DNA of 64,000 bases from Marsupella aquatica (lineage: Eukaryota > Plantae > Marchantiophyta), in assembly GCA_973895155.1 (NCBI GenBank), contig OZ316894.1, forward strand, positions 12,874,828-12,938,827, in the 5' to 3' direction. Shown here piece after piece: positions 20,808-63,389 of this stretch (its first letter is position 1; each line of letters begins with the position of its first letter). The notes under the pieces are model-generated. The model did not search any database and was not told the origin of the DNA. It worked only from the letters and a program-made list of their open reading frames with translations. Position numbers and translations under genes: made by a program.

Positions 20808-20887
20808 GGCACTCATTTTGCCTTACGAGTGGAGCCGTGTAGTGAGCTAATAACCTTTGATTTTGTACTCGACGTGTAGGAAGGGGC

Positions 20888-24956: not shown

Positions 24957-25314
24957 GAGGAGCTCAAGCTGCTTCCAACGCTGCTATCCACGCAGCAAAT
25001 GGTTGAAAAGAGAAATTGGGAGAGGAGGCGCAAGCTTGCAAAAACTATGGAGGAGGGCCAAATCAGAAGTACATAGCCAATTCAAGATAGAAATAAAGTT
25101 GCGAGTTAGGGTTCAGTAGTTAGAGATAGTGGCGGCTCTATTAGGGCTGGGATGGGGCTCCAGCAGCGTAGCATCCACCCATTTGGGCTCAATGTGAGAG
25201 TATATAGAGCAGCCCCTCGGTAGAGGCAAAGGGGGGGGGACTTTAGTTGTGTCATCTCATGTAGACTGAGGAGTAGGGAGGAGCTCTGAACTCTATCCTA
25301 AACCTAATCCGCCG

Positions 25315-39300: not shown

Positions 39301-42300
39301 GATTTGATGATTTTCGTCTGAAATTGATGTCGTTCTAGGGGTACTTGTCCAGTCTCTAATGTTCGATACACTTTCTGAAGCCAAGTTACATGGTTGTGGG
39401 TTTCCTTGTAGCAAAACGAGCAACCGGCAATTGTGGGATTAAGAGATGAGGAGCTTGCAATGATGGAAGATGCCCTGCAGCGTCTACATTCTGAGTTGCA
39501 AAACTCAGTTCCTCTGATGTGGCATTCAGAAGGTGTAGCATCTTGCATAGGTCACGGAGCCGAAGCCGACCAACAGCATTATGACATTGATTTGAAGTTG
39601 AGTTCTATCAGCCGAGAGCAATTAGCAACCGAAAACGCTATGATGCGATTAGAAGCAAGGAAGAGGACTTCCTCTTCAGAGTTCTCAGAGCAAAGGCGTT
39701 CTCGGCAAAAATTACCATCTTGGATGGAAAGACAGAAAATTGTGGAGTCAATAGCCCAAAATCGTGTCATTGTCTTGACGGGGGAAACTGGATGCGGAAA
39801 GACCACTCAGGTATTGTATTTGTGTTACGTACCCAGTTTAAATCATTAAAAAATGTGCTCGTTGCTCATGTGTCACCTATGTTATAATGGTCTTGTGCTT
39901 GCATTGTAGCAAAGGCTTGTGATTTTCTTTGCAAGAATGTAATTTGTGCCAATGAAAGCGCCTTTCTTCTGTGATGGGAATCGTAGAAAATTGTCATCCG
40001 TCATATGACAGTGCTTCTAATCATCAATTCAGAGATTCCCCACTTTCTACGGCCCTCAAAGTTGTGCAATGAAGCTCATTTCACCATTTCTGATCGCGAT
40101 TTGTCTGCGAAACTATTGTTTGCTTCTTTCCATAGATCATACTTGAGAGGAGCTGGTATAGCCAAGCTCATTATCCTCTTCAGGAGTCCTTTTCGATTGT
40201 AAAACATTTGGATTTAGACGTAAATTCCATGCAGGTGCCTCAGTTTGTCTTGGAGGATGCAGAAATGAGGGGTGTTGGTTCTGATGTCCATATTGTTGTG
40301 ACACAACCAAGGAGAATAGCGGCTATAAGGTAGAGCATCTATTTGTTTCTATTGTTTTACTCTCAAGGTTACACAATATGAAGTTCAGGCCCCGAAACCT
40401 GGTAGCTGTGCCTTATTGGGCCGTCTTTTCCCTGGACTTCGAATGAGCAACGGAGTGTTTTTAGGATTGAAGACTGGATAAACTTTCGATACTGCTGCTG
40501 CCCTAGCGCTCAGCATTACTTATTTAATGTATCACATTGTACTCAGGTAGTGTGTTATAGGGCTGTACTGGGGGGTTTGGTTTCGATGTTTTTGATTTCA
40601 AATTGAAAATATCTTAGTGTTGCATCAGTTGGTTATTTCGCAGTTCAAGGCTCGAACTCATGTTCTAGTCTTTTTCTCACTCTGATCTTAGTGTCTATTT
40701 GCACTCTAAACTTGTTTGCGTTCCTGTCGAGATGGATATCATGGCAATTCTGTTGTTCGTATAAAAATGAGCAGACGCTAAAAAAATGGGAATCCAAAAT
40801 GGAGTAAATACTTGGCACCTCGGGGGCTCGTTCAGATCAACTGTTGAGCACGTTCTTAAGGATTGGTTTGTCCAACTCAGCCTGTTCTGTGGTGAATTGT
40901 AGTGTTGCTGAGCGTGTAGCTTGGGAAAGAGGCGAGGCTGTTGGAAAGAGTGTTGGTTATGTCATCAGACTGGACAATGCACCTCCCAGGGCTCACGGAA
41001 GCATTCTTTACTGTACGACGGGTATATTGCTTCGCAGATTGCAGGTCTGGTACTCATACTGTCAATTTGTCTGTGAACTATATGTTTCAAAGGTTTTCTA
41101 AGTTATGGGAGTCTATTGATTATGAAATCGATGTCAAAGTTGGCTGGGGATATCTGGGTTAAAATTACCAAATGGAGTTAAAGGCTGAGTTTGTCCAATC
41201 TCATACCAACTCTTGGTTATAAAAGCAGTAGTCATGTATCTGGAGGAAGTAGAATAGATGAACAGCGAGGATATTTGAACGAACCATTTGATTGGCTAAC
41301 AGGTCGGCATCTGAGCTTTAAACGTGTTCTCAAGTCCGGTTGGTGGTTCGTAAGATTTTCGGAAGCCAGAACTAGCTGTCGTTTCTCCTCGTAGTGTCCT
41401 AGATTGCTGTCCTTCTAGATTGCCTTGTAGGATTGTCCTGTCATAACAACGCTGGTAGCATTTTAGGGACGCCGGCATGCGAAATCAAACAAGATCTCAT
41501 ATCTTCTGAGCTTGCAATTTCTTCAAATGAATGGATTAGATCATCCCAATGTGACCTAGATAGAAAAAAAACCAGATCTCTGATGAAAACAGAGCTGTTT
41601 TGGCCATGCTATTTATCCTAATCCTAACGAAAGAGACTTTTTGCAAGGTAAGTGTTTAACCAGGTTAAGGTCAAAAGTTGTATGGGCTAGTGCGATGCTA
41701 TATAACCAGGTTTTAGCATGCTGATGATGCTGTTTCAATTTTTGGCCCAGAAGTTGCTTGCTTTGGGATTTGACTTCTGGGCTTGTTCTGATTTCTCTCT
41801 CAGGAAAGCTGCAGTAGTTTTCTGGTCTCTTCAGAGCTTTGTGGGATTTTTTCCTGTTTGAGTTTGGCAACACTGCACGCGAGTACTCGTCAACTCTCGT
41901 ACATACGTTTTTTAGTATGTACGAGAGTTGACGGGACCAAGCCTCTGTACTCATCCGGTTTGTCTCTCGTGGCGAATATCAGTTCTTCATTGTCTTAAGT
42001 AGCCGAGTTGTGTTATTCTTGAGCCAATGCTGCCTTCTTGGTGATATAATTAAACAATGACCGAAACCCTTTATTACTTTGTCTGTAGTGACGAAGCCCA
42101 TCCAGCCTGTTTCTTATCGTCTTAACTGTTATCCTTGAGCCAGTGCTGATTCACTTAGAGCTATCTTACACGTCAGTGTCGTAAACTTGAGTCCTTCCGT
42201 ACCTCCTGGTATTGCTCCCCTGTCTGGCAACATACCTGGAAATACCTGGAAATGATTCTCTTAGTGTCCCTAATACACCTCCTTCCCGTCCTTTGTTCAC

Positions 42301-45300
42301 TGATCCTCCTGGTGTTTATGCTAAGGACATGGTGAAGAGAAAGACAATCATTTAACACGGTAGCAAATTAAGATCACTCTTCTAAGGCCCATCTATATGC
42401 AAGACGGCTCTTAGTGACCTGTGTGAAATGGTAACCGGGTCCGCTTGAGGCTGCAGGCCCACACGGCGCCTTCCTGATGTTTCCTGAGGGGATTTAGAGC
42501 TCTTCAAATCTGCTTGTGCTCTGACCCGTTAGTTCATTGACGCTCCTGAAATTGAGCTCCTTCCATGGAGTAGTGCTTTCCATCGTACTACTGATCAGAA
42601 GGGGGCCCCTTGGATACTTGTGCGTTTCACTCTGTAATTTTGTATTTGCATGGTCGTGTTCAGTTTACAACGTATCGTAGGGCCTCAGTAGATTAGGAGG
42701 TCCTTAAGTTGCAGGTCTGGGGGTATGAGCAGTATCTGGATAGTAGCAGCAAATTTTTAGGTCCCATGAAAGGGAAATGGAGAAACATAGAAGTGGGAAA
42801 ACTAGCCAACTGCGATAGAAGGGAAGATAATGCAACAAAAGGGTGTAATTCACAGCATAACAGTTTGGGGGTCTTCCTAGACAACCTTTATGATTAATGC
42901 CGTTTCAGTCTAGAAGGTGTGAACCCAACAGAAGAGTCTTTTAATGAGAGTTCTCTATTTCGACGTGCTTATCTTGAAACAGGCATGGTTGTCCGTTTAA
43001 GATGTCTTGGATTTGATCTCCCTGTAGCACGTGCTCCTGTTAGAATCAGTATTTGAGGTCAATTCTTTCATTTGCGTTTCTCCTGCAAAACTTTCTACAG
43101 CATCTCGACTTATGCTACAACTGACACATCTCAGATCAACACCTACAGGAGTTCAGGGCTAATCAATCACTTCCGAAGGCAAAGTTTTGCGTCCATGAAC
43201 TACCTATTTCGGGAACTCCTGGTAGCCTGCAATCCTACGTTGACCTACCTAGAAGCTGCTAGCTCCTTAAAGTGTTAGAGTTAAGTACTGAACCTTTGTG
43301 GCAATTTGTCTTATTTGGGAATCATCCAAATTCAGCTGTTACGATAGCACTATGTTGGGAGGAGTACTCAAAACAGAGAGGGAAAGTCTTTGCAAGAAGA
43401 CATCCTGCTAGAGGCATCCTTTCTGATGCAAGTTTTCCCCTTTAAAGGTAAGAGCTATTACCATAATCTGCCTGGAATTATGCAACTTGCAATATGATGT
43501 GGGGACACATCTCAAAGATACGTCAGAGCACCGGGTATGAAGAATACTTGCTCTTGCATGGAGCACCTTCTTTATGACCGCTGGCGGCAAAGTCAGATTT
43601 AGACTGATAGACAGGCAGTACATATTAAATTTGGCATATTTTGGGAAGAAGACGATACAAGGGAGGACTTCCGACACACCCGCCTGAGAGTGCATCAGAC
43701 ACTACGAAGAGCAGAAGAACAGCAAGGTCCCCTTTGATGGCATCTGATTTGTAAAACTGGACAAATCATAATTTGTCAAAAGGAGGTATTCCTCTCTACT
43801 TGTCTGCTGACATAATACTCCGCTCGCGTTGAAATGGAGCTGAGGTTCTCTCACACGCAAAGCTGCATCCAAAAGCACACATTCAAGCAAGACTCTGAAA
43901 CTGGGGCCGCCCCACCAGTTTTGTGTTAGTCTTAGTCCTAGTCTTAGCCCTTGGCTTAGCTTTGGGTTCAAAAGGCAATGTTGGAATCTCACCTGTAATA
44001 CGTTTTAATGTTGGCCTCTTGCCCTTCGGGTTGCGACGCCCCAGGTTTCGTCATCAGACTTTCACCCCACATCCTTCTCGGATTAATTTGGACTCTTCCA
44101 CTGGGCCCTGCGGCTCTTGAGAGATTTCTTTCACACCTCCGGGCCCCACAACGGGCTCCACTGCCATGGCTTTTCAATTCTTGCTAATTTTCGATAAATC
44201 TCAAGAGGAGCCTTTTTCTTGTCCCCTAATCGTGTTTGGAATTGATTCTATACTAGATAAAGCAAGTTTTTTCTTGTCTGGTGTGTTTGGAGTCGAGTCC
44301 ATACTCACCTGCTCTCATGCTTTCATTGTTACAGCCTGGTTGCAACCTTCCGTTATTTTCCAACCAAATTTGTGCTTGCTCTGATGCATTCACTGCCAAG
44401 TCACAACAGAGTCGCAAACTTTGGGTAGTACTCGCTCTCATGGGTTCACTACCTAGTCACAACCTGGTTGCAACCGTTCTCAGGTTCACCAACCAAAGTT
44501 TTTCAAATCTTAACGTAGAAGGTTGGACAGCCTAGGGAGCCAACAGAAGTCGTCGGTGAGTGATTGTGTCGATTACGTCTTCAACTAGCCAACCCTTTTG
44601 CTTTCCTATCTATGCTTTGGCGCTTTTGAGGATATTTATTTAGATGGTTGTTGAACTGATGCTGGTTTGGTTGACGAGTGTGCTTCAGACGACGTACCAT
44701 TCTTGAAAATCGGGATGATGGAAGGTTTGTAGCATGCTCCAACTGAAGTTTGTACCCAAAATCTCACGCTAGAGTGTTGGTCTAGGCAATACCTGGGTTC
44801 CAAAGACGGGTCCAGGTTCAGCTGGTGTAGGGCACCAGTCCAGGACCGGCTTCCACTGCTGCAATCTTCCATGGTCCACATTTGGAGATGGTTGGAACCT
44901 ACCATGGTCCATATTTGGAGGTCCGTTGGAGTCTAGTCTATACCATTATTATCAGGCTGGCTAGGGGATTGTCCTTTATGCGAGTAAGCTTTACATAGTG
45001 ATTTTTGGTCTCGGGCAGATCTACTATCAAAGCTGGGTGTGAGGTCAAATACCTCTTTTGGAACCCACAAAATGCACCAATCTAGCATTAGCTACTACAA
45101 GTCCTGCTTTTGCAGACTGATTGGCCCTTGACTGATCAATTGTGCAAGTCTTGTTCCATTTGGCATCTCAAAGTTGGTGCTATCAACTTTATTGACAACT
45201 CAGAAAGATCGCATGAACATATATTAAAGTACCATCTCAAATTTCTACCCCCCATTTCCCAAGATTTTTGCAGCTAAATTCATAAAGTAGTCCATGCCAA

Positions 45301-48300
45301 CCCTACTAGGCCAGATAGACAATCTTGTGTTTTGCAGTCTATCTCAGTTCAAAGACAGAGAATATTCATTGCTTGAATGATCACCGGGTCCCAATGTGTA
45401 CAGAATGAGATTGGAGATAAGGGAGACCTTGATTAGCTCAGGTAGATAGGCAATGTCATCACTGTAATCTGATAGATTTTAAGCACTGCGACTTGTTTAC
45501 TTTTGTAAAGTATGTCATGATCCAGAGCCACTCCAGTGGATGCCCTCACTCCGCCATCCACCTCGTCATACCCGAGTGGCTCATCCAGAATAAAGAGCTC
45601 TCAGACCATCTTTGAGCATTGTCGTATCCAAAGCCGTCCAGACCACATCGATTAGAAATTTTGGGCTAAACATAAGTTCGACCGCTGCTAGAAATGGAGT
45701 TTTGGTTAATGATGGAGGACCGGTGTGTTGATCTACACCAAACTCGATGGAAAAATACAATGACAAGTGAAAGAAAGGATGGCAGGGGTTTAGGGTTTAG
45801 GGTTTAGAATTCGATGTAGACAATGTCCAAAGCCCCACAGTGGCAATCGACTCCACACTCCAGAAAAGCAGATAGAGATCATACAACAGCACCGTCAATC
45901 TCGTCGACAGCGTCAACCGTTGCACATTCTCAGAAATTGGAGCCCAGGTGAGAACCTCAGAAAAAATGAGCCAACGTGACCCAAGGAGGGCACTGATGAG
46001 ATCACAGATGTCGCCGCCAAGGTCTGACACTATACTTCCTGATTTTAATCAGCTTGGATCACAGAGGAGAAATATGGATATGGTAGAGAACCGATGAATC
46101 CATGTCATCCGTAAGCTGATTCTGTTCAAGAAAATGGAGAGCCTTTTACCATCTACGGTAGAAATATCTCACCTTGCACTAGAGCATCACATGGCCGAGG
46201 CAAAGGGCAAATGCTGGTAACCTTAGTTGAGCAGATTTTACATCTCCATGGACAATTTCCCAAGGTTGTCATTTTGAGAACCACAAACTTTGGCTTTTCA
46301 AATCATTTCTCAATTCTCACTGGCAAAACCATAAGGAAAATATTGAAGCAAGGCTAAACAGGCGAACTGACTTTGGAAGTCCCCAAACATCGGCTACAAG
46401 CCGACTTCTACGAAGTACTGTCACTTACACATAAACGATTCTAGTCTCTTGATCTCTCTGCCAAAACTGCCTATGGATTGTGACGTTGCTTTCAACTTTG
46501 AAAGCTTCTGTACAATCCGGGTCCCATGGTCCATGTGGGTCCCGTCGGACTGTAAAACATTTCATTCATTCACCCTCTCTAGATTGACTTGATGGAATTC
46601 AAACTGCTGCTGTCCGTACTCTTGTAAAAAGAGTCTAGTGGTTACATTCCTATCAAGTACATTTTTCTCCACCAATGTCTCGCTGGACTGTTGAATCCTC
46701 TCTCTCAAGCTGTGCATCGGTAGATGGAGTCCTCTACCCCAGGCCGGGGGCTCTAATTTTACCGTGTGCACAGATAAGGGTGTGCTCTTTGTGTCCCACC
46801 TTGTGCTGGTTGGTTCGAAGAGAGCGCACGTCATCTCCTCACCCCTAACAAGGTTGATTGCTTAAATTGAGAAAGGGGATAAATGGATGTTGCCGTCAGG
46901 TGCTTGACCTTAAATACCAGTCATGCATTCCTTTATATCGATAGGCATAGCTCTGTCCCACCAACAATCGTGTAGATTTTATAAGCCAAGTTAATAATTT
47001 TCTGGATGATTGATTTCTGTTTTAAGGGCTGAATTCAAAAAGTACATTTCAAATATGTTTGAGCCGATACAGACTGACGTATTAGAGATCATCTTCTGTT
47101 ACACCACTGAGACGTTCAGGAGATATCGTTAGGGAACCAAATGAAAAGAAAACATGTGGAACACAATGTAGCGATGGCCCATTTGGATGTAACCAAATAT
47201 CCTTAAAAAACGATTGTCACAGGAAACGAGTATGAAGTGTATGAAATAGCAACTCTTGGTGTGCTTTAAAGCAAGGCCTCGTCCTTGATTAAGAATGTTG
47301 TTGCGGATGACGCTCGTCTGCTTGCTGCATAGCGTGCCTCGTCATTAAACACTTCGATGAGAGGTCATTAACTCATGGGAGTGACTTTTGTCAATGGGCA
47401 GTCTTTTATGTTGAGAATTTGTGGATGCGGTGGGGTATGACAGAAAGCTGATGGAATGGCAGGAGTCAGCCATGTGATAGTTGATGAAGTTCATGAGCGT
47501 GACGTAGACACTGACTTCCTACTGGTGGTGATTCGTGAACTCCTTAGTCACCATCCCTCATTGCGAGTTGTAGTTATGAGTGCAAGCCTAGATGCTACTA
47601 TGTTCACAAGGTACGTGGGTCGTTTTTCAGTTAACTGAATACTGAGTAATGATGCTCTGATTCCCTACATTGCAAATTAATAATCACCTCCATTGGTGAT
47701 TATTTTGGCTGATCATATGCTCTTATGTTTCTGTTTTGAATGTCAAATGCTCGACTTTCAGGTATTTTGGAGGCTGCGCTTTGGTCAACATCCCAGGAAT
47801 GACACACCCTGTAGAAACTTTCTATCTGGAGGATCTTCCACAGCTCATGGGTCACCAGAGTATTCCTGCATCAAGGCTGGGGTTGGCACGATTTGGGATG
47901 TTGGATGAAGAAGATGTTGACTGTGAGCTTGTTGCATCTGTAGTTGCTTGGGTAGCCCAGTATTATGCACAAGGAGATGGGGCAATCCTTTGCTTCCTAC
48001 CGGTAAGCTCCAAAATGCGAATGCTACCCGGACCCATTAGGAAGTTATTGGTTTTTATTTCATTGGGAATCTTAAGAACCATTATGCAGCTTCTCGTGTA
48101 GATGAGTCAATTGGTGTGGATCTTGTTTGCGGCCTGCTAGGAATGTGAACAGGTCCTGATCCTGATCCTGTTCTTGTGCCGTGTAACTTCTTTGTCAGGG
48201 GTGGGACACAATTGCAATGGTGCGAGAGAGACTTCTGAAGATGCCCTGGAGCAGGGACCTGATGTTGGTTCCCCTGCACTCTCAGCTCCCAGCTGGGGAG

Positions 48301-50385
48301 CAACGTGCTGCTTTCGCTCAACCACCTATTGGTGTTCGCAAGGTGTATTTGACTTGGGGTTGCGTTCCCTTCTTTCTTGGTTTAGACGATTAAGTCATTG
48401 ATATTAACATGACTGTTGATTCTGTGGCAGGTTGTGCTGGCCACGAATATTGCAGAGACTAGTGTGACAATTGATGATGTAGTTTATGTCGTTGACTGTG
48501 GGAAAATCAAAGAGAAACAATTTGATGCATCACGGAATATGACTACAATGCGCGTCCAAGTATGCACTTTCAATTGCCGCAGTGATTTACTTCTAGGTTC
48601 AGGGCAGTTCTTTCTGCAATCTTGTGCAAAGGGTCTCAATACAATTAACTTTAAGAGGTTATGTTGATTTTACTCTGAGCATGTTAAACAATTGCAGTGG
48701 ACTTCACAAGCAAGTGCTCTGCAACGACAGGGTCGGGCAGGTCGTGTTCAACCCGGTTTTTGTTTTCGCCTCTACACTTGTGCCGTAAGTTGTTTCTATG
48801 AAGGTTTTCTGCATGTTTTGGATCAAATTTACATGAAAGCGTTCGAGCCGAATGTCCTGTCACTTTGTGATTTGTTCTACAGGTGACTTCTTTTCGTTCT
48901 TTGATAAGAAATCTCAATGCAGACACATCAAGCAATGCTGGAACATCAGATTCCGGAGATGCAGCGAGTGCCACTTGAGGAGCTTTGCCTGCAAATCAAA
49001 GCAATAGCAACACCGAGTTTGGTAATTATTCTTTCTCTTTCGTGCCATCTTTGTTAATGACAATCTAAATCTTTCGGAAAATGTTTTTGGGAATTTATTC
49101 ACCCGAAGTATCCTAAAGCTAGGATTGAGATGGACAATTGAATGGTAGGGAATGTACCTTTAGACTATTTTGATCGTTGCATTTACCTTACAATTGGCAC
49201 TCTCGGCATGGTGTGGAGCAGGTTACTAGTGCTGTTTCAGTGACAAGCTGTGATCTCTTGTATAAAACTAAGGATAAAGAATATAGGTATGTCAGTACAG
49301 GTATGAGTGACATTGCTACTTTCCTATCAAAAGCTATGCAGCCCCCCAAAGGTGCTGCAGTTCATGCTGCCATTAAAGTACTGCAACAACTAGGTGCCAT
49401 TGATGAACTCCAAAATTTGACGAATCTCGGCAAAACGCTGGCAAAGCTGACTGTTCATCCTCGGTTTGGAAAGATGTTGGTTTTTGGGGCACTGTTGGGT
49501 TGCCTAGACCCTTTGCTGACTATTGCAGCTGCTGCGTGCTTTCGGGATCCATTTGTTGCTCCTGTGGCAAGGAGAGAGGAAGCTGATAGAATTCGGGAGA
49601 GCTTCGCTGTGGGCCCTGCTTATGGAAGTGATCAACTTGTGGTAGTTGTGGCCTTCGAGCAATGGTTGGCAGCTCATTCGGTTGGGCAAGGATCCTCGTT
49701 TTGTGAAGCAAATTTTCTTGCTCCTATGACTATGAGGCTCATAGCAGGTATGCGGAAGCAGTTTGAGAGAACTTTGGCTGAAGCGGGTCTTTTTGAACCA
49801 TGGGTAACGATTACCAATGCTGCTGTGGGTGCACATGTGGCAAGATCACTGCTGACAGCTGGACTCTATCCTAATATTGCACGCTCGGAATTGTGCCGGG
49901 AGTCTAAAGGTACGAAGAATGGTACCAAACATGCTTACCGGTGGCGCTTGGGATTCCGAGTTCACAATGGGCGGGTTTTTATCCACCCCACGTCCGTTGT
50001 TTGTGAGAAACAGCTAAACCCAAACTTTCAGTACTATGTAGTCTTTCAAGAGAAAATGCAGACTAGTCAGGTTTTTGTGAGGGGATGTACTCTCCTTCCC
50101 ACCTTGGCAGTGGTCCTCTTAGGTTGGAACGTACATGTGTGCCAAGATACTGGGCCATCTGTATTGAATGGTGACTGGATACTTTTGGAGGTGGAAGGGT
50201 GGCTAAAGTTCCACATTGATAGGAGAGCTGGCCTACTGTTACTGCAGCTCCGGCATGCATTTGACGCAGTTTTGGCTCGTTGGGTAAGTGGTAGTACCCG
50301 TACAGAAGCAGAGCGTTGTGTTGTGGAATGCGTTGTGGCCCTACTACATGCAACTTGTCATGACATGCTTGTCGGCTCCATTTGA
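36396..50385 (+). CDS. DEAH/RHA-family RNA helicase with two N-terminal dsRNA-binding domains (DHX9/DHX30-like)
   Basis: Exons 36396-36626, 37815-37904, 38081-38251, 38598-38819, 39412-39810, 40235-40329, 40903-41044, 47444-47610, 47762-48002, 48199-48342, 48431-48559, 48698-48784, 48923-49021 and ~49222-50385. Motifs: [56 protein letters not shown]2 and OB-fold (FIHPTSV). dsRBD ends [14 protein letters not shown] and [13 protein letters not shown]. Confidence 0.9.
41200..46560 (-). mobile_element. Highly degraded L1-like LINE in the 6.4-kb helicase intron (41045-47443)
   Basis: Only faint minus-strand traces: AAGP near 44110 (cf. KAPGPDG), KGCL near 43415 (cf. RQGCPL), a KGG-like stretch near 42605 and a Cys/Trp-rich end near 41900, in L1 ORF2 order. 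Boundaries are approximate. Confidence 0.45.
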
Positions 50386-52617
50386 TATCTCCTAGCGATA
50401 AGTTTTTGCGAATTGACTCAGTTTTTAATGGAACCTTAGAGAGAGACAAATGCAGTTGTACATGGTGTACTATTGTAGATACCGGCACATTGCCAAAGAT
50501 TTGATGCGATAGTTTTGTCAAAACCTCTTAAATAATCTTGTTGTTCACCTGGTTCCCTGATGAAATGTGCTGTATTCATGGATCTGCCAAAAGAAGTTGT
50601 GCAGCAGTCCAACAATTTGGAGTGGCCACGAGGCTGAAGCAGGAACGCGTGTCTTCTTTGTGCTGATAGTTTAGTGAAGTCAATTTTGTTTAGAATCTGG
50701 GAAGTGCGTATTACACTACATAGACTCGCCTATGTATGTGAAGACGTTATCAGCACAAAGATATGGCAGGTAATTAACAATGAGTGCATATAATGCAGTT
50801 TATCGGTATGTTGATGGATACGCTCCAAATCAGGAATATAACGAGATGTATTCCACTATGTGGCAGACGTTCATTCTCTTATACGGTCCAAAATCGATAT
50901 CTTTGATCATTACGGTGTGGAGCTTGAAGGCTAGACTACGGCATGTGGCTCAGCTGGAATTGATCGTGTACCACTGAGTCAGGTTGGATATATACTGAAG
51001 AACTTAAAAGCAGAAGGAAGGTTAGAGCGGGGAAAACATAGTGTCATCCATTTTCCCCGCATACGCACTGCTAAAACTCGAATTTTAAGAGCATGAGTAG
51101 GAAAACAATGAATGTAAGCTTCGTTGTAGGCATTTTGTGCTGTGGATCTGAGAGTCAGCAAGGATATGACCATTGCAAGTTAAAAGAGACCCTTCGAGGA
51201 GAGTGACTACAAATGCGTAAGAGATAGTAACTTGAGATAGGATACGAGTGGAAAGTTAGATCAGAGGGCTCTCTTGAAGAGTATACAGATAAGTGAGACA
51301 CCATGTCTCGTCCTGAAAAGGAAAGTCAACAGTCTGCTGAGCTACTCAGTCCAATCTCAGACAAGGAAAATGCTCTGATCCTTTCCAAGATGTTCTGTCA
51401 TCCAAGAGGACCCTGTATTAGTCACGAGTCAAAATCTGCAAATCCTGACGGCGAATACTTTCTACAGACCTCTTCAGAAAGAAATGTTCCCAGCTCTGAA
51501 GAGAATCGCAAGTTTGCTTAGTCTCAAATGAGGTCACGGAAGCTAAGTTTAGGAGTGGGTTCCTAAGCTCTTTTGTTAAATTTCTGAGTTGTAGGTGTTG
51601 AGACTCCCAGTTTCCATCACAACCCTTCACTTATGAAGTTTTTCAAAGCTGTAGTAATCCCAGCATTGGCTACTCGATAGAGTGGACATCATTGTCATGA
51701 CCTTTTTTACGGGCCCTCACAGTCCTACTTGTGGCTTGGATTGCAAAGTGGTTTCAGAGAGTTTGAGCCGTGGAAGAATTTTCTTGCACCATTCTGGCTT
51801 GAAGAACAACCCATAAGATAACTAAGATTGTACCATTTGAATGCTGCTTCGATAGTAAACGAATGAGGGTATGACTACCATGTGAGGAAACAGGAAAAAA
51901 TTTGCTCGTAACAGTAATTTTTTGCTGTTACGAGTAAAAAAATTCCTTGTAATGGGTGATTTTTTCATCATACCAAGGTTTGGACTTCTTGGCCGCTAGT
52001 AACAGCAAGCCTTGCTAGCAAAAACCCATCCAACAGTCTGTTCGTATTTTAATGACTAATGTTTCTTTAAGAAACCTTTCGAGTGAAGTAACTTTTTTTA
52101 AAAACAATTCGGACAATCCAAAATAGATATAAAGATCACCACCGAAGCACTTGGCAAGCAGTTTTACTTGCAATTTAAATGATGGGCCTGGAGATTGGGA
52201 GTCATCAGTATCTCAGATAAACATACAAAATTGGCACCATAACCAACTTACAAGGTTGACAGTGATTTCAGGGAGACTTGCCAACTGTAAAAAAAAGCCA
52301 AGTCTGTAAGCCATGATATTCGACCTTATCAGGGTATGTGACTGTGTCACTGAAAGTTTTCTTAGTGAGTACCAAACCAGGGTCCAAAACATCAACCTAC
52401 AAACATTTTCAAAAATATAGCTAGCGACCTCGCTAGCAAAACCAATCAACCAATGTCTGGTGTTTTATAAATAAATTAAAGGGCACTTCATATGGAGTGT
52501 AAATATCATCTCTCCCTACCAACACACAAAAACGTCTACTCCCAACAGTACTTACATATATATTAAAAACCAATGAAAACCTTATTAAAACCAAACCTCA
52601 CTCTAAGGTGGACAATA

Positions 52618-55600
52618 TCAAGCCTCAACTCCCCTTTGGATCAGATCGGAAACTTCAGCGACAGTTAAAATAGGCTGCTTGACTACATCCGAAGTCTCTA
52701 GGTTCAAATGGTAAACATTCTTGTAAACCCAAAGAATATGTTTGCAAGACATGTAAGGCTTTCCATGTGAATGCCGCTTATAGAAATCCTCACAGGAGCA
52801 ACATGGGAAGACGCACAACTGAATCCAATATTTACTAGATTTACTAGGGTTGTTTTCATGCGTCGCAATCAAAAACTGTCTTCCCCATCCGTTTCCTTGG
52901 ATGATCTTTTCACAAGCCACAATCCTCATTTGCTCTTCATTTGCAGACCGAATCCTTTTAACAAGTTCTGCAGTGAAGTTGAAACGTTGACGAGCACCCT
53001 TCCCATTTCGTGTCCTCAGTCGTCTATTCAAATAGTTTACATCAAACTTTTCTGGAAAAGAGTTAACGTCAATTTGAAGTTCCACGCGACCTGGAGGAGC
53101 AACACTGCCATCTGGTTTGCCATCTGGTTCGCAATCCATGTAATATAGACCATCAATCTGAAAACCCAAGCCAATCAAGAAGCTGATTTCAGGAGGAGTT
53201 AAGTCTGTCCCTCGAAGAACTTTTAGAGACGAGGGTACTAAAGGAAGTCGGGCAATTGACTTGCGACCCCTGGTCTTGTGGCAGACATTGTTTGGGCAGA
53301 AGTATAAGAGTTGAGGATGTGGTAAGTCATCCTCAAACCATGGATTGCAACCCCAACCACACCGCAAGACCGAGTATGATAACCTACTTCCTTGATTAAG
53401 TTTCGACACTCATCTCTTCCATAAATGGTCCGATCCATAGACCCATTGCACACTGGACCATTTCCTTTCCCGCACCGCCTTAAGTGCCAAGTACCAAATG
53501 GCACATCAACTTCATTTACCGCAGGTATTCTCCTCGGTGAAACATAAACTGGTTCCTCTGGACAAACAGGAGATACATCTCGTTGTGGCAATGGTTTAGG
53601 AATTTCCAAAGTGTCATCTCCTGAGCTCTCAGTGTCATTCCCTTCATTATCGGAAAGAAGAATCATGACGGATGGATTTGGACAACTGGAGAATGTTGAA
53701 GGATGGAGTATGCCGGAAGTTTCCTTCAACTCATCGCTCTCTTCCACAACATTGACACTCCAGAAATCAGAATATAAATTTCTTGGATTTACGCCTCTTG
53801 TCACTGCCTCCGTCTGCATCACCTTATCATGTCGATGAGAGTTTTCAGCACCAACTCTAGCCGAAGCTTGGCCTTTTTGTTTTCCAGACTTTGTGCACAG
53901 ATCTCCATGAAGTGGTTGAGTGTGATGGTAATCATATTTTGGAGATGATTCAAGCAGAAGATTGGTTGCTTTCTCAAAAGCATCAAGGGATCCTAGTGTA
54001 TCTGCATTCCTATATGCAAGTTCAAATATGGTAGGTCCATGTCCCCTGTGGCATCCTTCAATGTATGCAGCAAAGGCAGCGATCTGCCCACCAGCATGAT
54101 TTTGATCAAGCTCACAAGCTTCAAATAGTCCAATCTTCTTCTTCATTTGACAAGCTCTCATTGAACCATATACAGATTTGGCTCCAGTACAATTTGGCAT
54201 CAATGCTGACTCCTTTGCTGTTTGAGTCTGAAGTCCAGCCAAAAACAAACACAATCATTGGGAGGCACATACTTGATTTCAAGATTGCATTCATACAAGG
54301 AAAGAATGCTAGCGACATCGCTAGCCAAAAAAGATGAGTTTACTTACCAGTCTGAAGAAGTTTCCCCACTGTCGTCATCGGACAACCCACCAAGCAATCC
54401 AGCCTTGCAAAGATCTCAATTTCCTAGGGTGACAATTTCCACACTTCCACCACTCTTGAATATCGTTAGCCACCCTGTAAGCTTGAACATATGTGGCTGC
54501 ATTCCTAAATTTCTCCCACATTTGGTAATGTTTCGAGTGTTTCCCTTCACAAATTCCCTCCACAGTATGACGTCTTAGTGACTGCGAGAAATGGAATGCA
54601 TCACTATGTTCTTTCTCAGGGAGACAAACACCATCAAAGAAAACATTTCTCAGAGCGATCCATCCAGCTTCAGCATTGTCAGCCATAAAACCAGCTATGT
54701 TTACATTGGAAATACCATTCTCAGCAGCAACTTCCAACATTAAACGCCATGTAGTTTCCAGTGACTCAACATCCTTGGCTTTCAATTCACAAGTGAAGAT
54801 AGTACAAAGAGCGCGATAAGTGTGATCGTATACATGAGCACTAAAAGTTAACCAACCAGTAGTTATTCTGTGCATCACATCAAAACTCACCCAAGCTCCC
54901 ACTAAAGTTCCACCTTTTTGCATCCGATTGAGAATGTCAACTCCAGAACCGGGACCTTTGGTACTCATCTTGAATACATGAGCTCGAATGGACTTGCCAG
55001 CCTGGCCAGGGAATAGGACCCTGTAGAAATGGAAATCTCACGCGCATTTGCATGTCACGAAGCGAATCCAACTCACCTTTCTTGGGGTTCCCAATTTTAA
55101 CGCTCCGGAAAATTGCATGGAATTTTGCCGGCGAGGACACAACTTTCATCGAGTTCCACAATTCCACCTCCTCTTCTTTTGAAAGATCATGACATGCCTC
55201 AGGATGGAGAAGAGATATCAATGTACCTATTGAAATATTCTTCACACGAGAAGGGGTTGCCAAGGGATGAGCTAACTGAATGCCTTGAATAACATCTTCC
55301 GCTTTTTTTTTGCAACTCGACACTTCCCCGTTCGGATCGGATGATCATGAACAATATGCACTGCGAGTCTAGACATGTGTTTTGAGTCATGAGAGTCCAA
55401 AGTTGGCTTTGCATAAACATAAAACATCATTGCTGGACAAGGCCTGACACAATAAGGTCTCTCATCACAAAAGCCACAAACCAAACCTCATTCCAAAACC
55501 AGGTTTCCCGGCTGGAAGACATCGGTCATTAGTGATCTTCCAGGAAATGTCGCTTCATTCCTCATTCCTGACTCCTTGAACCTTGAACAATTCAAATTTT

Positions 55601-56378
55601 GACACTGCACAACACCACTGCAACGGACCTTGAAAACAGACCAGTGATTACGTGGCTTCAGGTTAGCCGAAGTAGTGACCAATCGGGTCCAAGGGTAGCC
55701 ATCATTGTCGCGGTCCATGTCGAGAAGCCCTTGATCGCGACCAAATCTTGACTCCACCGGAGGAAGCTCATATACCATGTCTCCATTGTAACTTGTCGGA
55801 AGACGATCAACTTGGACATCAACCCACGAGACATCTCTTCTAAATCTTGCCAGCTCACTTGCCCCATTAATGCTCAAAAACGCTTCAAGGGCACCAATTC
55901 TGTAGACTTTCTGAAAAAGATGGCATCCCGAAGCACTTGGAAGAGGAGTATCTACTTTCAATTCTGTAGAACAACTTCCAAAAGCAGAATTAGTACCCTC
56001 AAGAGTGGTAAACCCACAACCAAAGGCCTGGACATTCGTTCCTCTCCCCGGGGGAGAGTCCAGGTCTACAAGCACTTTTCCCCGAGGATTCTGAAAAGGC
56101 TCTGGAAAATCATCTTTGCCTGACAAAACCTCAACCACGTCTCCGGAAGCAACCTCCCAAACTCTTGCACCATGTAGAGTTCTTGAAATAAATTCATCCT
56201 TCCTTGATCCATGAAGTGAAACAAGAAAGAACAACCTCAAAATGAAATCACAGTTATTGAGCCCAAATCTTGTCAAAAGAAAGGCCTCGGTCACATTAGT
56301 GATCTTTCTCATAGATGAAACTTCAAGAGTAACAATGTCTCCAGTGCTCCGACGCCAGAAGATGATGCTCGGAGCCAT
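52618..56378 (-). pseudogene. Mutator-like DDE transposase with N-terminal GCM-like Zn domain and C-terminal SWIM finger; frameshifts and stops
   Basis: GCM-like: DGYPW...CSGVVQCQNLNC...CGFC...PCP...HDHP. Catalytic core: WVSFDVMH, GFMADNA, AFHF, with the expected E position reading GAKS. SWIM: CSCEDF...CKHILWVY. Intron ~54347-54231. Confidence 0.8.
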
Positions 56379-57777
56379 CAAATGAGGACCAAGACAAGGA
56401 TCCAAACACAAACATCATGGATGAATATATAGAATAACATTACCTAGGACAATAAAGTTTAGAATAAAAAGGACGTCCATTTTAACATTGCATATACGAC
56501 AAAACTTCAACGGCTCTAATACCTTCAAGAAATGAATTATTGCTAGCGATATTGCTGGCCTAAATTTGCTATCATAAAGAGGTCCTTATCATCCAAAGTT
56601 ATATCTGGTAATCTTCCAAAAATTGCCTATAATGTGGACAACAAGGATAGCTTGGGTTGTAGTAGGATGTTTACTGAACTTGAAGTGTACTTGGGGTATA
56701 CTATAAGGATTATTGAACTTGGAGCTTTGTGTTAAACAACAGTTTTTACTAGCAACCACGCTAGACATAATTTAGGTAACTTTTCTGTGTTTAAGGTAGA
56801 CTCTAATCTTCAACCATCTATATTTTAGTGATACTAAAATATGATTTCCACTCACAAATTGACATTAACAGAGTAGAGGATTCTAAGATGTCCCATAAAC
56901 TAAACCTCTGAGAAACCCTGAATTAGGCCAGCGATATCGCTAGCCTGAAGCACCAGAAATTTAGGGTAGACTATTATTTGGGTTTGGGGTTCAATTGAGG
57001 GATATAGAAACAAATATATGGGCTATTTGTATAGTTTACACATGAAACATTGGGCTATTAGTATAGTTGAAGTCTAGTTTGTTGACTGTTTGAAGAAGTT
57101 AGGAAAGAATTTAGGAGAGAATTAAGGGTTCATTTGAAATAACCCCACCTCACTTTTAACCTACCCCATTAGCAGTGATTTGGCCAGCGATGTCGCTGGC
57201 AAAAAACTGTCTAAATACTTGTCTCAAACAAAGTATGGAGTTTGTCCATTTTGGCCTCAACAAGACCCATAATCAGTCATCTAATGTCAAAATTATATTA
57301 CCGTTGGAAGGGTTAACTTCATTTTGAAGAGTAAATTTTATAAAAACTTTGGTTCATACTTCCATCGGCATATTTTGTTACTTTGGAGAATGGTTAGTTT
57401 CGACGGACACCCAACCCAAGTTGGTCAACTATAGAGTAATTGACTCCAACCGTTGGAGTCAAATGTACATTTCATCCGACCGAGTTGTCAGTAAGTAGTA
57501 ATTAGACTCCTTGTTAACATTAACTGATGCTTTGTTAACGTTAATTAGCACCGCTGGGATTAACATTTGTATAGCTCTCATTGACAGATCTTTGGCATGA
57601 AGGTGTTAAATACTGATATTCCCTGTCAATGTCAGATACACCGTAGATTGGGTTGCTTTGGATTTCCCCTGAAATCTTGCTTTGGATTCCTAACACATGT
57701 GACTTTGGATTCCTTTGCAAATAACTATACCAATTCCTTGCATTCCCTTCACGTGGTTCTCCTCTCTTTATCAGTCA

Positions 57778-60700
57778 ATGGCAACTTTTGCATCCCCTGA
57801 GTCTATTTCGTCTGTTGCCTCACAATCAGCTGCCTCTCAACGTCGAGAGACCAGGAGTTCTACGAGCCACAAAGCACTTGCTTTGGGGCTGAAGACTCCA
57901 AGGAGGCGAAAGCTTGTTGATCCAATGGATATTGTGCCGCCTTCGATGGATTTTGCCAAGTCAAAGCCTTTCTCAGTTGTCATTAACTGGCACCTTTACC
58001 AGTTTGGGCTGGACAAATTTGGGTATCCTCTTGTTCCCCCCCGAATTCCATTGTGTCGCATGCAGAACATGCAGCTTGTAAGGTCTCTTCAGACAGATTC
58101 GAATGCAATCGAGACTTTGAAGAATGAGTTCCGGGCTCAAGGGTACATTGAGGACGCGCCTCATTTTTATGTGCAAATGACAAATGAGAATGGGGACGTG
58201 CAGTTTCTGAATGACACAATTAGACAGAGCTGGGATCCAATGTGGTTGGCGCAGAATGAAGCTTTCGAGAGGGAGTGTGATTTGCATCCTGATTTTGCTG
58301 TGCTCAAGGATAAAATGTTTTGTGTATTTGATGGCAATCACCGTCTCTATTCGTGGAACCTACTTGCTGCTGAGAATCCTCACGATGTCAAAATATCATC
58401 CTCGAGTTGTCTCAAAGATATTCAAAGGAGAGAAATATACTTTCGTGCAGATTGAATCTGCGATGCGTGCTCTCAACCGGTGAGAAGATCTTTGACACAT
58501 TTGATGTTTTTGCTTCATTTTTGAGCATGATCTGTTCTTGCTATTTGCTGAATTCTATCCTGAATGGCAGGTTGACACAATGCCATATCAAAAATTTGTG
58601 GGTGCTCAAAGCTGATCGGGTCCATAAGATTTTGCGCACGGACCTCTCAGTTTACAAAGATTTAATTGATCCAGAGAATTTCAAGTTATTTCAGCAGAAG
58701 ATGCAAAATGTGAAGAAGCCATCGTGGTATTCGAAGCATATGACCTTAGATGCATGCATTTATATTCTTTCAGCTGCAAACATAGCTTTGCAAACTGCTG
58801 ACTTACTCAAGAAGTTTGCACTGAAGGAGGAACTTAGTGAACCTTTGTCCAAAGCTACAAAGGATATTGCAATTCGAGATATGATGAAGGAGCAACTCTC
58901 TGACTGGAATGTCAAAGTTCCAAAGTTTTCCCCGCTTCTGAATCCAGACTTTGGGGATTTCTTCAAGAAATGTGTTGAGATGCACAATTATTGTGAGAAA
59001 GAAAGGAAGGAAGCTCAGTGGACGGATGATAAGGGGAGAGGGAATGTTTTGTGTGGCCTTGATCGTGCAAGGCTTTTCACCGGGGTAACTTCTCTGAGTC
59101 CACAACTCCGTTGCACTCTTCTCGAAGCACAGTGCAGACCAGAGTTGCGTAAACAATATTTCCACCCATCTCAATTTTTGGATAGTGAGACCAAGCTCTG
59201 GTTGCATTGATGGGCAACCTGGGAACAGGTAGATTCCATTGCAAGGTGCTTATTAAGTGAAGCAATCTCTGAGATTATTCTCACTGTCCCTGAATGTAGA
59301 ATTCTTTCTTCCCCAGAGAATAGTCAGGCATCCCTCCTTGTTGAAATTGATGATGAGTTTGAGGATTTCCTGCAGCGGGTTAAGGTAAGGTTCTTTAAGA
59401 GCATCTGGAACCCGAAAGTTGGGGAAAAGATTGACATTGCTGCTTTTCGACAAAGGGCAAAAAGGTATGTTTACAGGTTTTTTGTTGATCGGGAGGTGGA
59501 AAATAGATCTTTTTGGTGGTGTTATCCGGCATGTTTCTCTCAATGGGCACAATATGCAAGAGATGATTCCGGTTGTGAGAAGTTTGGGGAGTACTCGATG
59601 TACCCTATTGAGGACATTGAACCCTTGCGGAAGATAAGTGAATGGGAGGTGCTGCATTGTCCCTGGTATTTAGATTTGGGGAATTGGTCACTAACATTTG
59701 ATGTGACAAAGAAAGTTGCGCTTCAAATTAAAGATCAAGTGGCTTGGTCCCATAAGTTTTTATTAGTGAATCTAAATTGTGCAACCCGGAAGTAGAAATT
59801 GCTGGCTATGTGTCGATGGAGCAGGCATGCCTCGGGGTGGCACCGACTGTTGATAGGAGCCGCCCTCGGAAATTGAAGAGGGATGTTGCCAAGGAGGTAT
59901 CAAAAGACGGCTCTATGCTTTCTGGAAAGAAAAGTAAGTATACTCTTATCTCTCCAAAGCTTACTTCTATTATCTCTCCCAAGCTGCTATTCTCATTAAG
60001 TTCATGACATATCCTTAGGCTCTTGGGTTGCTTTTTGTATCCAGAAAGGAGGGAGTCTTCGGGTTCCAAGAGTGTTCAGACTGTGACTAATGGTCGTCAA
60101 GAGGATCTTGTTGAGCCTGAGTCACCCGACTTTGAAATTGTGACTAAACCGGGAGGTGATAAGTTAGGGTCCCAAAGGCTGAAGAAGAAGAGAAAGGTTC
60201 AAGTGTTGTCAGATTCTGATGAGGAAGAAATTTCAATCCGAGAGGGTGTCACAAGGCTCTGTGGACTCCAGTTGGATGGAAGAAGACATTTCCTTGCAAA
60301 GAGTAATCTTAGTTTGACGGTTGACTCGATAAGTATGAAGAAGGTTTGACCTTCTTGGATGGGGGAGGGGGATCAATGGCTTTCGGAGATTTCAAGTTCT
60401 TCCAAACACCCGAATCCCTTAAAAATCAAGGGGAAGCCTTACACTGGGACCGGTGCCCATCTGGGGTTCATAGCGCTTCCGACTGGGCTGAGGCCTTGTG
60501 TTACTGATGTGGAAGTCCCCCAATGGAATGTCTGGGTTGAGAAGCTCCCTTACTATTTCTTTGGAGTGATGAGGCCCATGTTGTCTGATGATGGTTATGT
60601 GGCCGTTCTCCACAGTGGAGAATTTAACCACACAAAGCAAATTTTTGCTGCTGTTGAACAGAGGAACAAATTTAAACACCTTCGGAAGTACCATGTTTTA

Positions 60701-61363
60701 TTGGGGTCCCCAATGTGGATGCCAGACATGAACATTGAGGTGAGATTTGAGTGAAATTTTCAGGATTTAGTGTGTTGTTTTGACAGCGACCTCGCTGGCC
60801 TTCCTGGATTCATTAATTGATGTTTTTTTGTTCCTTTCCAGGTTTGCAACTTAAGCCTTGATGTCTTTTGTCGAGTTGAATTCAATGGGAAGATCCCAAA
60901 AGACCCAAAGTATGTCCCTCTGGCAACGTCTGAAGATGCATCACATAAGACGATGTTGAGTCTTTGTTATCCGAAAAGGGATACCAGGGCAGAGTTAGCT
61001 TTTTCCGGTCCTTGTCGGTTGTCTGTTGGATTCATGCAGGCTGTTATGGAGCTTCTCACAAAGCCTAGAGACATTGTGCTTGATTGGAATATTGGAGACG
61101 GTAGTTCATTTTCAGCTGGAGAACTCTCTGGGAGGTTCATTGTTGGGGTCGAGGATAGGGATGTTCTCCATGGTGCTGCAGAGAAGGCATTGAAGAGTGT
61201 TCTTGAGAGACACAAGAAAATTGAAGACCTTACTGAAACATTGGAGGAGTTCGATTCAGATGATGAATTTTCTCTTGCAGGATCAAAGAGTGGAAAAAAC
61301 AAAGATGGAGCTCCTAATGTTCCTGATGCAAAAGATGGCAATGATGAATTTGACCTGGAGTAA
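57778..61363 (+). pseudogene. ParB/Srx-like N-terminal domain fused to a C-terminal beta-class N4C/N6A DNA methyltransferase-like domain; 4 exons, disrupted
   Basis: Exons 57778-58479, 58571-59933, 60045-60739 and 60842-61363 (GT-AG). FCVFDGNHRL is the ParB GxxR motif. LGFIALPTG, MLSDDGYVAV and ELLTKPRDIVLDWNIGDGSSFSAGELSGRFIVGVE follow the IV...VI...X-I-II order of beta MTases. Frameshifts near 58390, 59460 and 59780; stops at 59208 and 60347. Confidence 0.72.
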
Positions 61364-63389
61364 TGTACTGATCCTCTCGCTTATACCAGATCCCTATGCT
61401 TTAATCAATTGGCTGGTGAAGCTTTCTATTGTCTTTTGATTGGATATTTCATTCATAGTCCTCTGATTGTTTTCCTGATTTCAGAGATACTCGTGTCGAC
61501 TGGTTTTCTGAAGAGAGATTTTGGCTTTGAAGGAAGATTGAAGAATCTTGCATTGTTTCTCCTCAGAAGACGTTTACTCTGCCTTGCTATGCAGAGAAGT
61601 CGGCAATTCAGTCGGATAATGCTTTTGTAGTCACCTGGGAAGGCAAAGGTCGTAGGTCACATCGTGGCGCCAGACGAAATTTATATTGCTTGCCTTTTGT
61701 TGACGATGAGGCATGCCTTGTTAAGCAATATGTTGATGAGTCTGCTGAGTCAACTGATCGGGATTTCAGCAGTGACCAGAGCAACACTAGTAGTAGGAAT
61801 GATATAGAGTCGGATGAAAGTCATTCAAGTGACTTCTGATTTTCTGAGGGAATAGAAGGATATCCCTGCACTGTTTACTCAAACTTACTGTCAGTTTTGA
61901 CAAAGTATTGGAGGCAGTACTTTTTTTGGAAATATGACCTTGAAACGGGTTTGAAATCTGAGTTCATTCATTCACTATGCCTTTTCATATCCCCCTGGTG
62001 TTTTACTAGCTTGTGTATATTCATATGGTTTGTAGTGATTGAAGGCTAGCGACCTCGCTAGACATAAAACTGAATGATCCCATTCTAGAAAAAAGATTCA
62101 TTTCTGTTGTAGAAATCTCACTATCCTCCCAATCTGCCACTCTGACCATTAGTTTTACCTTGCTAGCAAACATTAACCTTGCTGTCAATTTCTCCTGTTT
62201 CCTCACACCATACAAACCCCCAACGAATGAGAAGTTCAACATTGTTGGACAACTCTTCCAAGTTTGTGTATGACATATTTTGGGAGTGAGTGTACCGTCA
62301 CCACTCTGGACAGTGGCTCATGAAGTCTGCAGTCATTCTGAAATCAGTCTGAAAGCCCCCGGACACAATAATGTAATTATCAAGCTGAAGTTATTTTGCA
62401 CCCAATTACTTATGACTGAAAGATGAGAGGTCCTCCATGCAATCTTGTTTGATGAGGCCAAAAGGTATTTGTCTTGTGGACACACAGCCATAGGCCGCCA
62501 CTCATGTCTTTTGCACGCCATGCAGTCAAAACACATTGGATGTAATTGCATGTACACAAACCACATAGGAGTTTACAACTTCCAAGGGATGAAAGTCCAT
62601 GAGATATATGGTCATCCAACAAGGGGTAAATGGATGGCACCAACGGAGGATAGGGGCACACACCCTAACCCTAAACTATTGATGCTTGGGCAAATCAATT
62701 TGAAATGCAATAAAGATGCTCAGAATGCCAAGGAAGTGTTATGGACAGATGCGAAGGAGCTCTAGCCATCTACCCGGGGCTACTGGACAAGACAAAACAG
62801 ATGCATATTGTCTTCGTTGCATGAAAACAGAGCGGACCATATTAAGACTCCGGAGTTAAACAAACCTGCCAGGTGGATCCACATAGATTTGTAAACAAAC
62901 CTTGTTGTAGAAACTCTCTTCCAGTCATATACTTTGTGTAGTCTAAGTGCCTAGATTCATTACAAAGCAATAGTACAGCTGTCCATTAATGTGTCTTGAC
63001 AGGTGAAGTGCCCAATAAAGGCAACTCCCATTTCATTGTGTTGAATGTATGTGGCAATGTCGTCTCAAATTTCAACCTCCCCACTAATTGTAAAGCAGTC
63101 CATACAAATCTAGCACTTGGTCAATTAGTAATTATTGCAAAAACTGGGGGGTAGGTTATTTACCTGATAGATAGTATAGCACTAGGCCAATTTGTAATTA
63201 TTGCAGAAATTTGGGGGTAGGTTATTCGCTGATAGAAAGTATGCTCAATTTGGTCGATTCAGTTGGTTAACATTAGGAAGAGAGAGAGAACAGGAAAATG
63301 TTGTAATGGACAAATATCTCATATACCAGATGCAAACTGCTACAACTACAGCTGGGAAAGATACATAGCATCATATAAATGTGGACACA

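Follow-up and report, generated by a model that had tools for sequence, protein, structure and literature searches.

An element with two divergent genes

The window analyzed here is a 64,000-nucleotide (64-kb) stretch of the liverwort Marsupella aquatica (assembly GCA_973895155.1, contig OZ316894.1, positions 12,874,828 to 12,938,827 of the forward strand), and all coordinates below are positions within it. Between 51867 and 62221 it holds a decayed copy of a Mutator-like element (MULE) of 10,355 bp (10.36 kb) with termini GGG...CCC, which carries two divergent genes and seven copies of an 18-bp palindrome. One gene encodes a putative transposase. The other would encode a protein in which a ParB/Srx-like domain is followed by a segment resembling N4/N6 amino-methyltransferases (MTases), and it is well supported as the accessory gene, now decayed, of a plant transposon of the Mutator-like type.

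Target-site duplications (TSDs) of MULEs are described as 8-11 bp long (PMC6446971), and the repeat flanking this element measures 9 bp, or 10 bp when the next G is counted (AACGAATGA(G)), just outside 33-bp imperfect terminal inverted repeats (TIRs). A 5-bp duplication (ACCAT) was the first reading and was discarded when the longer 9-10 bp repeat was found further out. In all four runs the contig depth steps up several- to about 100-fold at both element ends, which indicates a repeated family, a step in depth not being a copy number. Just inside the left TIR lies a hairpin with 26-bp arms (51892-51947) that has no counterpart at the right end. The original prediction, made from the bare sequence, had suggested that transposons spread such genes in early land plants; carriage by a transposon is borne out by the element ends, the TSD and the depth step, and the named homologs come from liverworts (three proteins from Calypogeia fissa and one from Riccia sorocarpa, among 10 proteins looked up).

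The transposase gene is itself decayed, and its Mutator type was assigned from the translation, with motifs found by eye: we take these to be a WRKY/GCM-like zinc finger, a DDE core (FDVMH..MADNAEA..DAFH), and a SWIM-like CxC..CxH. Pfam and PDB searches with the translation gave no transposase match. An intron of this gene begins at 54350 on the minus strand.

The accessory gene contains the predicted DGNHR, ALPT, and DWNIGDG motifs at their places and is interrupted by three GT-AG introns (58480-58570, 59934-60044, and 60740-60841), T-rich in composition, that join the frames in phase; the position of intron 1 is where homologous open frames end too. The gene had been placed at 57778..61363. 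The start stands, but the gene probably runs past 61363, via a fourth intron (61360-61484), into an exon 5 ending at 61839. The TAA of exon 4 overlaps a possible splice donor at 61360, and this extension is suggested by splice signals, by composition, and by diverged contigs that pass over the intron or pick up again at 61479-61499. The four exons without exon 5 encode about 1094 amino acids. No Pfam family scored above its cut-off on any exon; exon 2 had no family match in the Pfam searches, and exon 5 had no match in Pfam or the PDB.

The window copy has decayed to a pseudogene: it carries one additional base near 58390, TGA codons at 59208 and 60347, and a probable frameshift near 59760. 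In all four runs the extra base is missing from contigs that account for 23-49% of the local depth, and the TGA at 60347 reads CGA in part of the depth. We infer that the ParB-like and MTase halves belong to one protein, because the splice phases agree, because in homolog P0045 the last part of exon 2 continues into the MTase, and because homolog P0048 joins exon-1 to exon-4 sequence.

Seven palindromes in non-coding DNA

The palindrome GCYAGCGA-N2-TCGCTRGC (pattern YAGCGANNTCGCTR), which was not among the earlier observations on this DNA, occurs seven times in the window with at most one mismatch, against a chance expectation of 0.12. That count was reached in 0 of 100 shuffles, a statistic that overstates the surprise because the pattern was derived from the seven copies themselves; an unguided repeat search also placed these copies first. 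All seven are confined to non-coding parts of the element (P about 4e-4, given that such parts make up about 33% of it), with no copy elsewhere in the 64 kb. One is found in an intron of each gene, three are intergenic, and one lies behind each gene. A diverged contig of run X4 covers copy 1 only, its alignment comprising 22 letters that end at 52441 (the joint), with the loose end starting at 52420; this suggests that the palindrome outlasts its flanks. Each arm holds one CpG and the element is depleted of CpG (observed/expected 0.49), so that host methylation could switch binding.

In runs X1 and X4, contigs pass over 56532-56927 and have their joint at copies 3 and 4, a variant in which the DNA from one site to another is deleted. 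A degenerate eighth copy with four mismatches lies at 56748-56765, and an unrelated palindrome, ACTCCAACCGTTGGAGT, at 57443-57459, upstream of the accessory gene.

The read-through intron of homolog P0010 encodes WPATSPA, which, as judged from the amino acids, would be compatible with the same 18-mer. Four metagenome loci with related first exons (L001-L004) were surveyed, on contigs too short to reveal an element. L003 and L004, which are close relatives and not independent, carry perfect palindromes of 24 bp and 20 bp, respectively, upstream, in non-coding DNA, and with a different core (0/60 shuffles each), and an intron of L001 holds two copies of one spaced palindrome. L004 also contains arrays of a 64-bp tandem repeat with GCTAGC at 18-552 and 2551-2996, flanking the ParB-like first exon.

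The palindromes might be sites of the transposase, leaving the ParB-MTase-like protein another role, such as holding the transpososome or acting on chromatin without sequence specificity; we regard this as somewhat unlikely. It would suit the presumed WRKY/GCM-like zinc finger of the transposase, and it would suit TTGCTAGCAA, a 10-bp palindrome akin to the half-site of the 18-mer, which is found at 52012-52021 and 62160-62169, 145 and 52 bases from the element ends, and nowhere else in the window. However, the full sites do not cluster at the termini but lie in the interior, with one in an intron of each gene, and two-fold symmetry around a free centre is the pattern of parS. The AtMu1 transposase is reported to bind motifs and activate cognate copies, but its peaks lie at the TIRs (10.64898/2026.08.24.746577).

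The methyltransferase-like and ParB-like halves

The likeness of the C-terminal segment to N4/N6 MTases, as originally predicted, is upheld at the level of sequence and of modelled structure. Exon 4 aligns to Pfam N6_N4_Mtase (PF01555) with E 0.0014 and 19.1 bits, below the gathering cut-off of 26.7, under which the plant-type homologs also stay (up to 25.0), and it matches PDB entry 5HEK (M1.HpyAVI) with E 6.8e-4. Among the 20 phage matches listed for this exon, 18 of the 19 annotated records are named DNA methylases. The sequence likeness exceeds chance; the 'longer' search with exon 4 returned 0 of 1228 candidates. The model of the liverwort homolog P0018, which is 33% identical to the window by tblastn, has a predicted local distance difference test score (pLDDT) of 63, and Foldseek gave it 74 matches at E<=0.001, the best being M1.HpyAVI (E 2.4e-9), followed by MboIIA, CcrM, RsrI, N4CMT, and PvuII. 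For M1.HpyAVI, MboIIA, CcrM, and PvuII the E values run from 2e-9 to 3e-7, and for N4CMT the value is 2.9e-7. As modelled on this homolog, the C-terminal half is a beta-class N4/N6 amino-methyltransferase fold, a permuted Rossmann fold in which motif IV precedes motifs X, I, and II.

At the position of the catalytic (D/S)PP(Y/F) the window reads ALPT. The Riccia homolog (P0056) covers profile positions 2-212 of 221 in PF01555, and its DPPT aligns both with phage DPPY and with ALPT, which fixes the register. In a profile comparison with phage MTases, weak though in register (probability 1%, E 0.053), FLPN likewise aligns to DPPY, and the His of motif VI is common to both. Across the seven sequences that cover motif IV (ALPT, SLPT, FLPN, FLPN, ALPT, CLPN, and DPPT), a complete (D/N/S)PP(Y/F/W) is found in none, the aromatic fourth residue is missing from all, and a polar first residue is present in two. 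The question of whether ALPT is ancestral or decayed from a DxP motif is answered by this alignment: the ALPT-type motif is a family trait at sequence level. Decay confined to this copy was rejected, since no sequence keeps the aromatic residue and the differences listed for the I and A codons among family copies leave the residues unchanged (three of four runs cover them).

Conservation around this motif was assessed in 40 rows, namely the window exon and 39 of the 53 proteins from a HMMER search. Of the 14 dropped, eight were fragmentary or chimeric, five were unrelated repeat proteins, and one was a piece of a bacterial methylase. The motif I residues D, G, and G are kept in 35, 32, and 35 rows, respectively, and the motif II E in 32, while the PF of motif I is replaced by Wx, with W in 34 rows. 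The P, N, and H positions in the N-terminal half of the fold are invariant. Among the coding differences between copies, 22 of 32 are synonymous, against 22% expected (P 2e-8); these 32 are the coding rows of the best 40 of 93, selected for support, with eight intron rows excluded. The synonymous excess and the conservation of motifs I and II argue that the MTase domain was under selection without its catalytic motif.

The original prediction left a choice between a divergent active MTase and a pseudo-enzyme, and the pseudo-enzyme fits better. That the protein is an amino-methyltransferase whose active site is remodelled but still works, writing N4-methylcytosine (4mC) or N6-methyladenine (6mA) at or around the palindromes and so marking the element as self, strikes us as decidedly unlikely. 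The conserved residues of the S-adenosylmethionine (SAM) pocket, the purifying selection on the exons, the invariant P, N, and H, and the DPPT of Riccia with the SLPT of one relative would all accord with activity, as would an Ectocarpus analogue, which its description predicts to make 4mC or 6mA. Against it, the first residue of motif IV varies among A, S, F, C, and D in addition to the family-wide loss of the aromatic residue, and loss of those two residues, SPPY to APPA, is reported to abolish N4CMT activity (PMC8885841).

Exon 1 has eight homologs with 37-56% identity, and R102, G122, and DGNHRL are invariant in all nine sequences. An MxxxN after the domain is present in 10 of 11 homologs (it is missing in P0008) and stands in the shifted frame of the window. 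These positions agree with what we take to be the ParB/Srx consensus: the Arg of box I, GxxR(L) of box II, and the Asn of the helix that follows the domain. The Atlas neighbours of the exon 1 core (57955-58392) include DUF3723 (0.93-0.95), ParB_N (0.89-0.92), and DUF6551. The 'ParB-like' phrog_1033 matches 3/9 members weakly (best E 0.12), and DGQHR matches 1/9, also weakly (E 0.012). A phage protein with ParB_N and then N6_N4_Mtase, in the same order as here, is encoded upstream of a terminase gene and has 599 relatives among 604 candidates. For an hhalign comparison with the ParB profile of this phage protein, an insert of 42 columns was cut post hoc from the plant profile, which then reached a score of 28.5, with 74 columns aligned co-linearly (E 3.7e-4, probability 37%); the maximum of 40 shuffles was 21.5, and the reversed profile scored 9.0. 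Comparison with the profile of a YbdM-like ParB family stayed within the controls.

The nearest Atlas neighbours of the core are unnamed clusters from cnidarians and the fungal DUF3723 proteins, which are accessory proteins of Starships. These neighbours hint that ParB-like accessory proteins of transposons form a wider family.

The fusion named in the original prediction thus stands unevenly. The MTase fold was found on the homolog model, and the ParB/Srx half is carried by its motifs and by weak profile and feature matches. The AlphaFold model of exon 1 has pLDDT 48, and with this poor model Foldseek against the PDB gave 0 matches at E<=0.001 (a ParB-N chain ranked 22, E 7.1), VIA-align gave a best Z of 3.6 (sulfiredoxin ranked 15, Z 2.9), and the viral structure library gave 0 matches. 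A PDB sequence search with exon 1 found no match, Pfam found no ParB match for the window exon or its eight homologs, and relatives of exon 1 numbered 0 of 28 viral-contig candidates and 0 of 30 bacterial or archaeal genome candidates, with none in phages or plasmids. On its sequence, exon 1 is likely to have a ParB/Srx fold. That it has none, DGNHR being a chance likeness and the gene passive cargo, would match the blank Pfam and structure searches and is very improbable, since the weak matches from four sources (Atlas, phrog_1033, DGQHR, and hhalign) agree and purifying selection argues against passive cargo.

Table 1. Features of the element by position in the 64-kb window
Feature	Position	Strand	Remarks
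Left TSD, AACGAATGA	51858..51866	.	9 bp, 10 bp counting next G; longest direct repeat between flanks, symmetric about TIRs
Left TIR	51867..51899	+	begins GGG; 24/33 positions pair with right end; 15-bp perfect core
Palindrome copy 1	52420..52437	.	downstream of transposase
Transposase gene, Mutator-type, decayed	52618..56378	-	divergent to accessory gene; from translation, motifs by eye
Palindrome copy 2	54308..54325	.	inside transposase intron
Palindrome copy 3	56542..56559	.	intergenic; one mismatch, CpG-to-TpG
Palindrome copy 4	56927..56944	.	intergenic
Palindrome copy 5	57183..57200	.	intergenic
Accessory gene, exon 1	57778..58479	+	ATG at 57778; low-complexity start, then ParB/Srx-like domain (IPLCR..VR..GY..FYV, 42-amino-acid insert, DGNHRL, MRALN); DGNHR at 58330-58344
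Accessory gene, exon 2	58571..59933	+	about 450 amino acids, no known family; TGA at 59208; probable frameshift near 59760
Accessory gene, exon 3	60045..60739	+	linker and N-terminal half of beta-class MTase fold; ALPT (60473-60484) at motif IV; TGA at 60347
Palindrome copy 6	60782..60799	.	intron 3 of accessory gene; sole listed variant in site at 60790, in 2-nt centre
Accessory gene, exon 4	60842..61363	+	MTase motifs X, I (DWNIGDG, 61082-61102), and II, within VMELLTKPRDIVLDWNIGDG...GRFIVGVE; acidic tail
Accessory gene, probable exon 5	61485..61839	+	one internal TGA; in-frame GT-AG intron, exon-like composition
Palindrome copy 7	62045..62062	.	downstream of accessory gene
Right TIR	62189..62221	-	ends CCC; 33 bp, imperfect
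Right TSD, AACGAATGA	62222..62230	.	same 9-bp (or 10-bp) repeat as left flank

Elsewhere in the window, the host gene to the left of the element is an ordinary, intron-rich DEAH-box RNA helicase (39412-50385, plus strand) with HA2 and OB-fold Pfam matches in its last exon. A GC-rich block at about 17000-27000 with gag-, protease-, and reverse-transcriptase-like open reading frames is probably a decayed Gypsy-type long terminal repeat retrotransposon, and two 50-bp direct repeats with 66 bases between them lie at 63111-63226, outside the element.

Proposed self-recognition and comparison with known systems

The reading that we favour, at a probability of about one half, is that the accessory gene encodes a site-specific self-recognition factor, a ParB-type protein with a dead methylase domain that binds the seven palindromes and keeps the element active. 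It is favoured because the element combines a likely ParB-type protein with a site layout like that of VANC; VANC21, whose target motifs lie in the introns, between the genes, and in the terminal parts of its Mutator-like element, is reported to bind them and to remove methylation (PMC5735166). The protein would dimerise through its ParB-like domain and recognize the palindrome as ParB recognizes parS. Its MTase domain, no longer transferring methyl groups but with the SAM pocket kept, may serve as a DNA-binding, base-reading, or scaffolding module. Occupancy of the sites, perhaps with spreading from them, could then work in this family as VANC proteins work in VANDAL elements, either shielding promoters and introns from silencing by host 5-methylcytosine or tagging the family for the transposase that it encodes. 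The gene itself would descend from a prokaryotic, probably phage-type, ParB-methylase fusion.

Several observations weigh against a self-recognition factor of this kind. The transposase carries a DNA-binding domain of its own, a MULE transposase alone is reported to bind motifs and activate its family (10.64898/2026.08.24.746577), and the half-site-like TTGCTAGCAA near both TIRs fits transposase binding. Among the metagenome loci, the single best palindrome site of L001 was not significant alone (7/60 shuffles), and L002 was without a significant palindrome (20/60 shuffles). On the protein side, no helix-turn-helix was identified in exon 2, the exon 1 model is poor with nothing significant in three structure searches, and motif IV is covered by the seven sequences only. 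The plant ParB-like profile, when unedited, scored 21.9 against the phage ParB profile and barely passed the shuffle maximum of 21.7, the higher score having needed the removal of 42 columns.

ParB dimers are described as loading at parS via a helix-turn-helix domain and closing into a sliding clamp gated by cytidine triphosphate (CTP) (10.1101/2025.06.10.659001). A bolder form of the self-recognition reading, which we consider unlikely, is that Mutator elements of the liverwort type operate a genuine ParB-parS system in a eukaryote, in which a CTP-gated clamp would load at the family palindromes and slide along the element, and the dead methylase would read or mask cytosines; the DUF3723 proteins of fungi would then represent a further branch of this clamp. 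If true, this would explain how a factor that binds at points protects a whole 10-kb transposon from silencing. It would be surprising to find a CTP-driven clamp sliding on eukaryotic chromatin, and such a clamp could open the way to targeted epigenome tools. Apart from this bolder form, the family suggests that the methylase half can be retained once its catalytic motif is lost, so methylation may not be its point.

The fusion has precedents: accessory genes with ParB and N4/N6-methylase domains, of putative function, are previously described in algal transposons. The closest in description is the accessory gene of Sola1-1_Ec32 in the brown alga Ectocarpus (PMC12477816), which encodes ParB-like and N4/N6 MTase domains in one protein of 1104 amino acids, against about 1094 here, on the strand opposite the transposase, and for which its authors propose self-binding and self-modification. 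It belongs to the Sola superfamily, its methylase is predicted to be active, and the available part of its description gives no binding sites, whereas the present element is Mutator-like, from a land plant, with a degenerate motif IV and seven dispersed palindromes; the two were compared by description. The red-algal genes PAG2 and PAG3, carried by Plavaka, Mutator, and Zisupton transposons (10.1101/2025.02.11.637652), share transposon-borne PF01555 and ParB-like domains, and inverted repeats are proposed there as ParB targets. In that system, however, methylase-SET and ParB-2OG oxygenase are in separate genes and tandem inverted-repeat arrays lie beside PAG3, whereas here one gene would encode both domains and the sites stand singly, scattered over the element.

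Phage fusions of ParB_N and N6_N4_Mtase near terminase genes (PV036416.1, XTK82159.1) share the domain order, the weak co-linear ParB match, the alignment of FLPN to DPPY, and the motif-VI His. The protein XTK82159.1 differs in its 413 amino acids, its intact DPPY and DPFGGSG, and its lack of introns, of a long middle region, and of the 42-amino-acid insert. ParB-terminase (ParB-Tls) loci have been noted as sources of eukaryotic methylases (PMC4738411). The original prediction linked the gene to bdelloid N4CMT (PMC8885841) and Marchantia DN4MT1a/b (10.1101/2021.02.12.428880), and these share with it a beta-class fold of bacterial origin in a eukaryote. The link is not supported: those are host genes of shown activity with intact SPPY and, in DN4MT1, TSPPY, and the accessible parts of their descriptions mention no ParB domain, whereas the present gene lies inside a transposon and lacks SPPY. 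Fungal Starship DUF3723 accessory proteins are the best Atlas neighbours of exon 1, a likeness at the level of Atlas scores. A literature search, outside which subscription journals and supplements fell, found no land-plant ParB-methylase case, no description of DUF3723 as ParB-like, and no pairing of DUF3723 with ParB.

The system closest in layout is VANC of the Arabidopsis VANDAL elements (PMC5735166), where an accessory protein of a Mutator-like element has family-specific motifs in intron, intergenic, and terminal non-coding DNA; here, all seven palindromes (7/7) are non-coding. The VANC motifs are 8-9 bp long, asymmetric, and amplified by tandem repeats, and their function is shown, whereas here function is proposed from a likeness of layout. 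Relative to these systems, the new parts are the dispersed palindromes, the family-wide loss of the catalytic motif, and the land-plant Mutator setting. In this land-plant family the candidate site is precisely defined, an 18-bp palindrome in introns and promoters, at which binding, CTP dependence, and anti-silencing can be tested directly.

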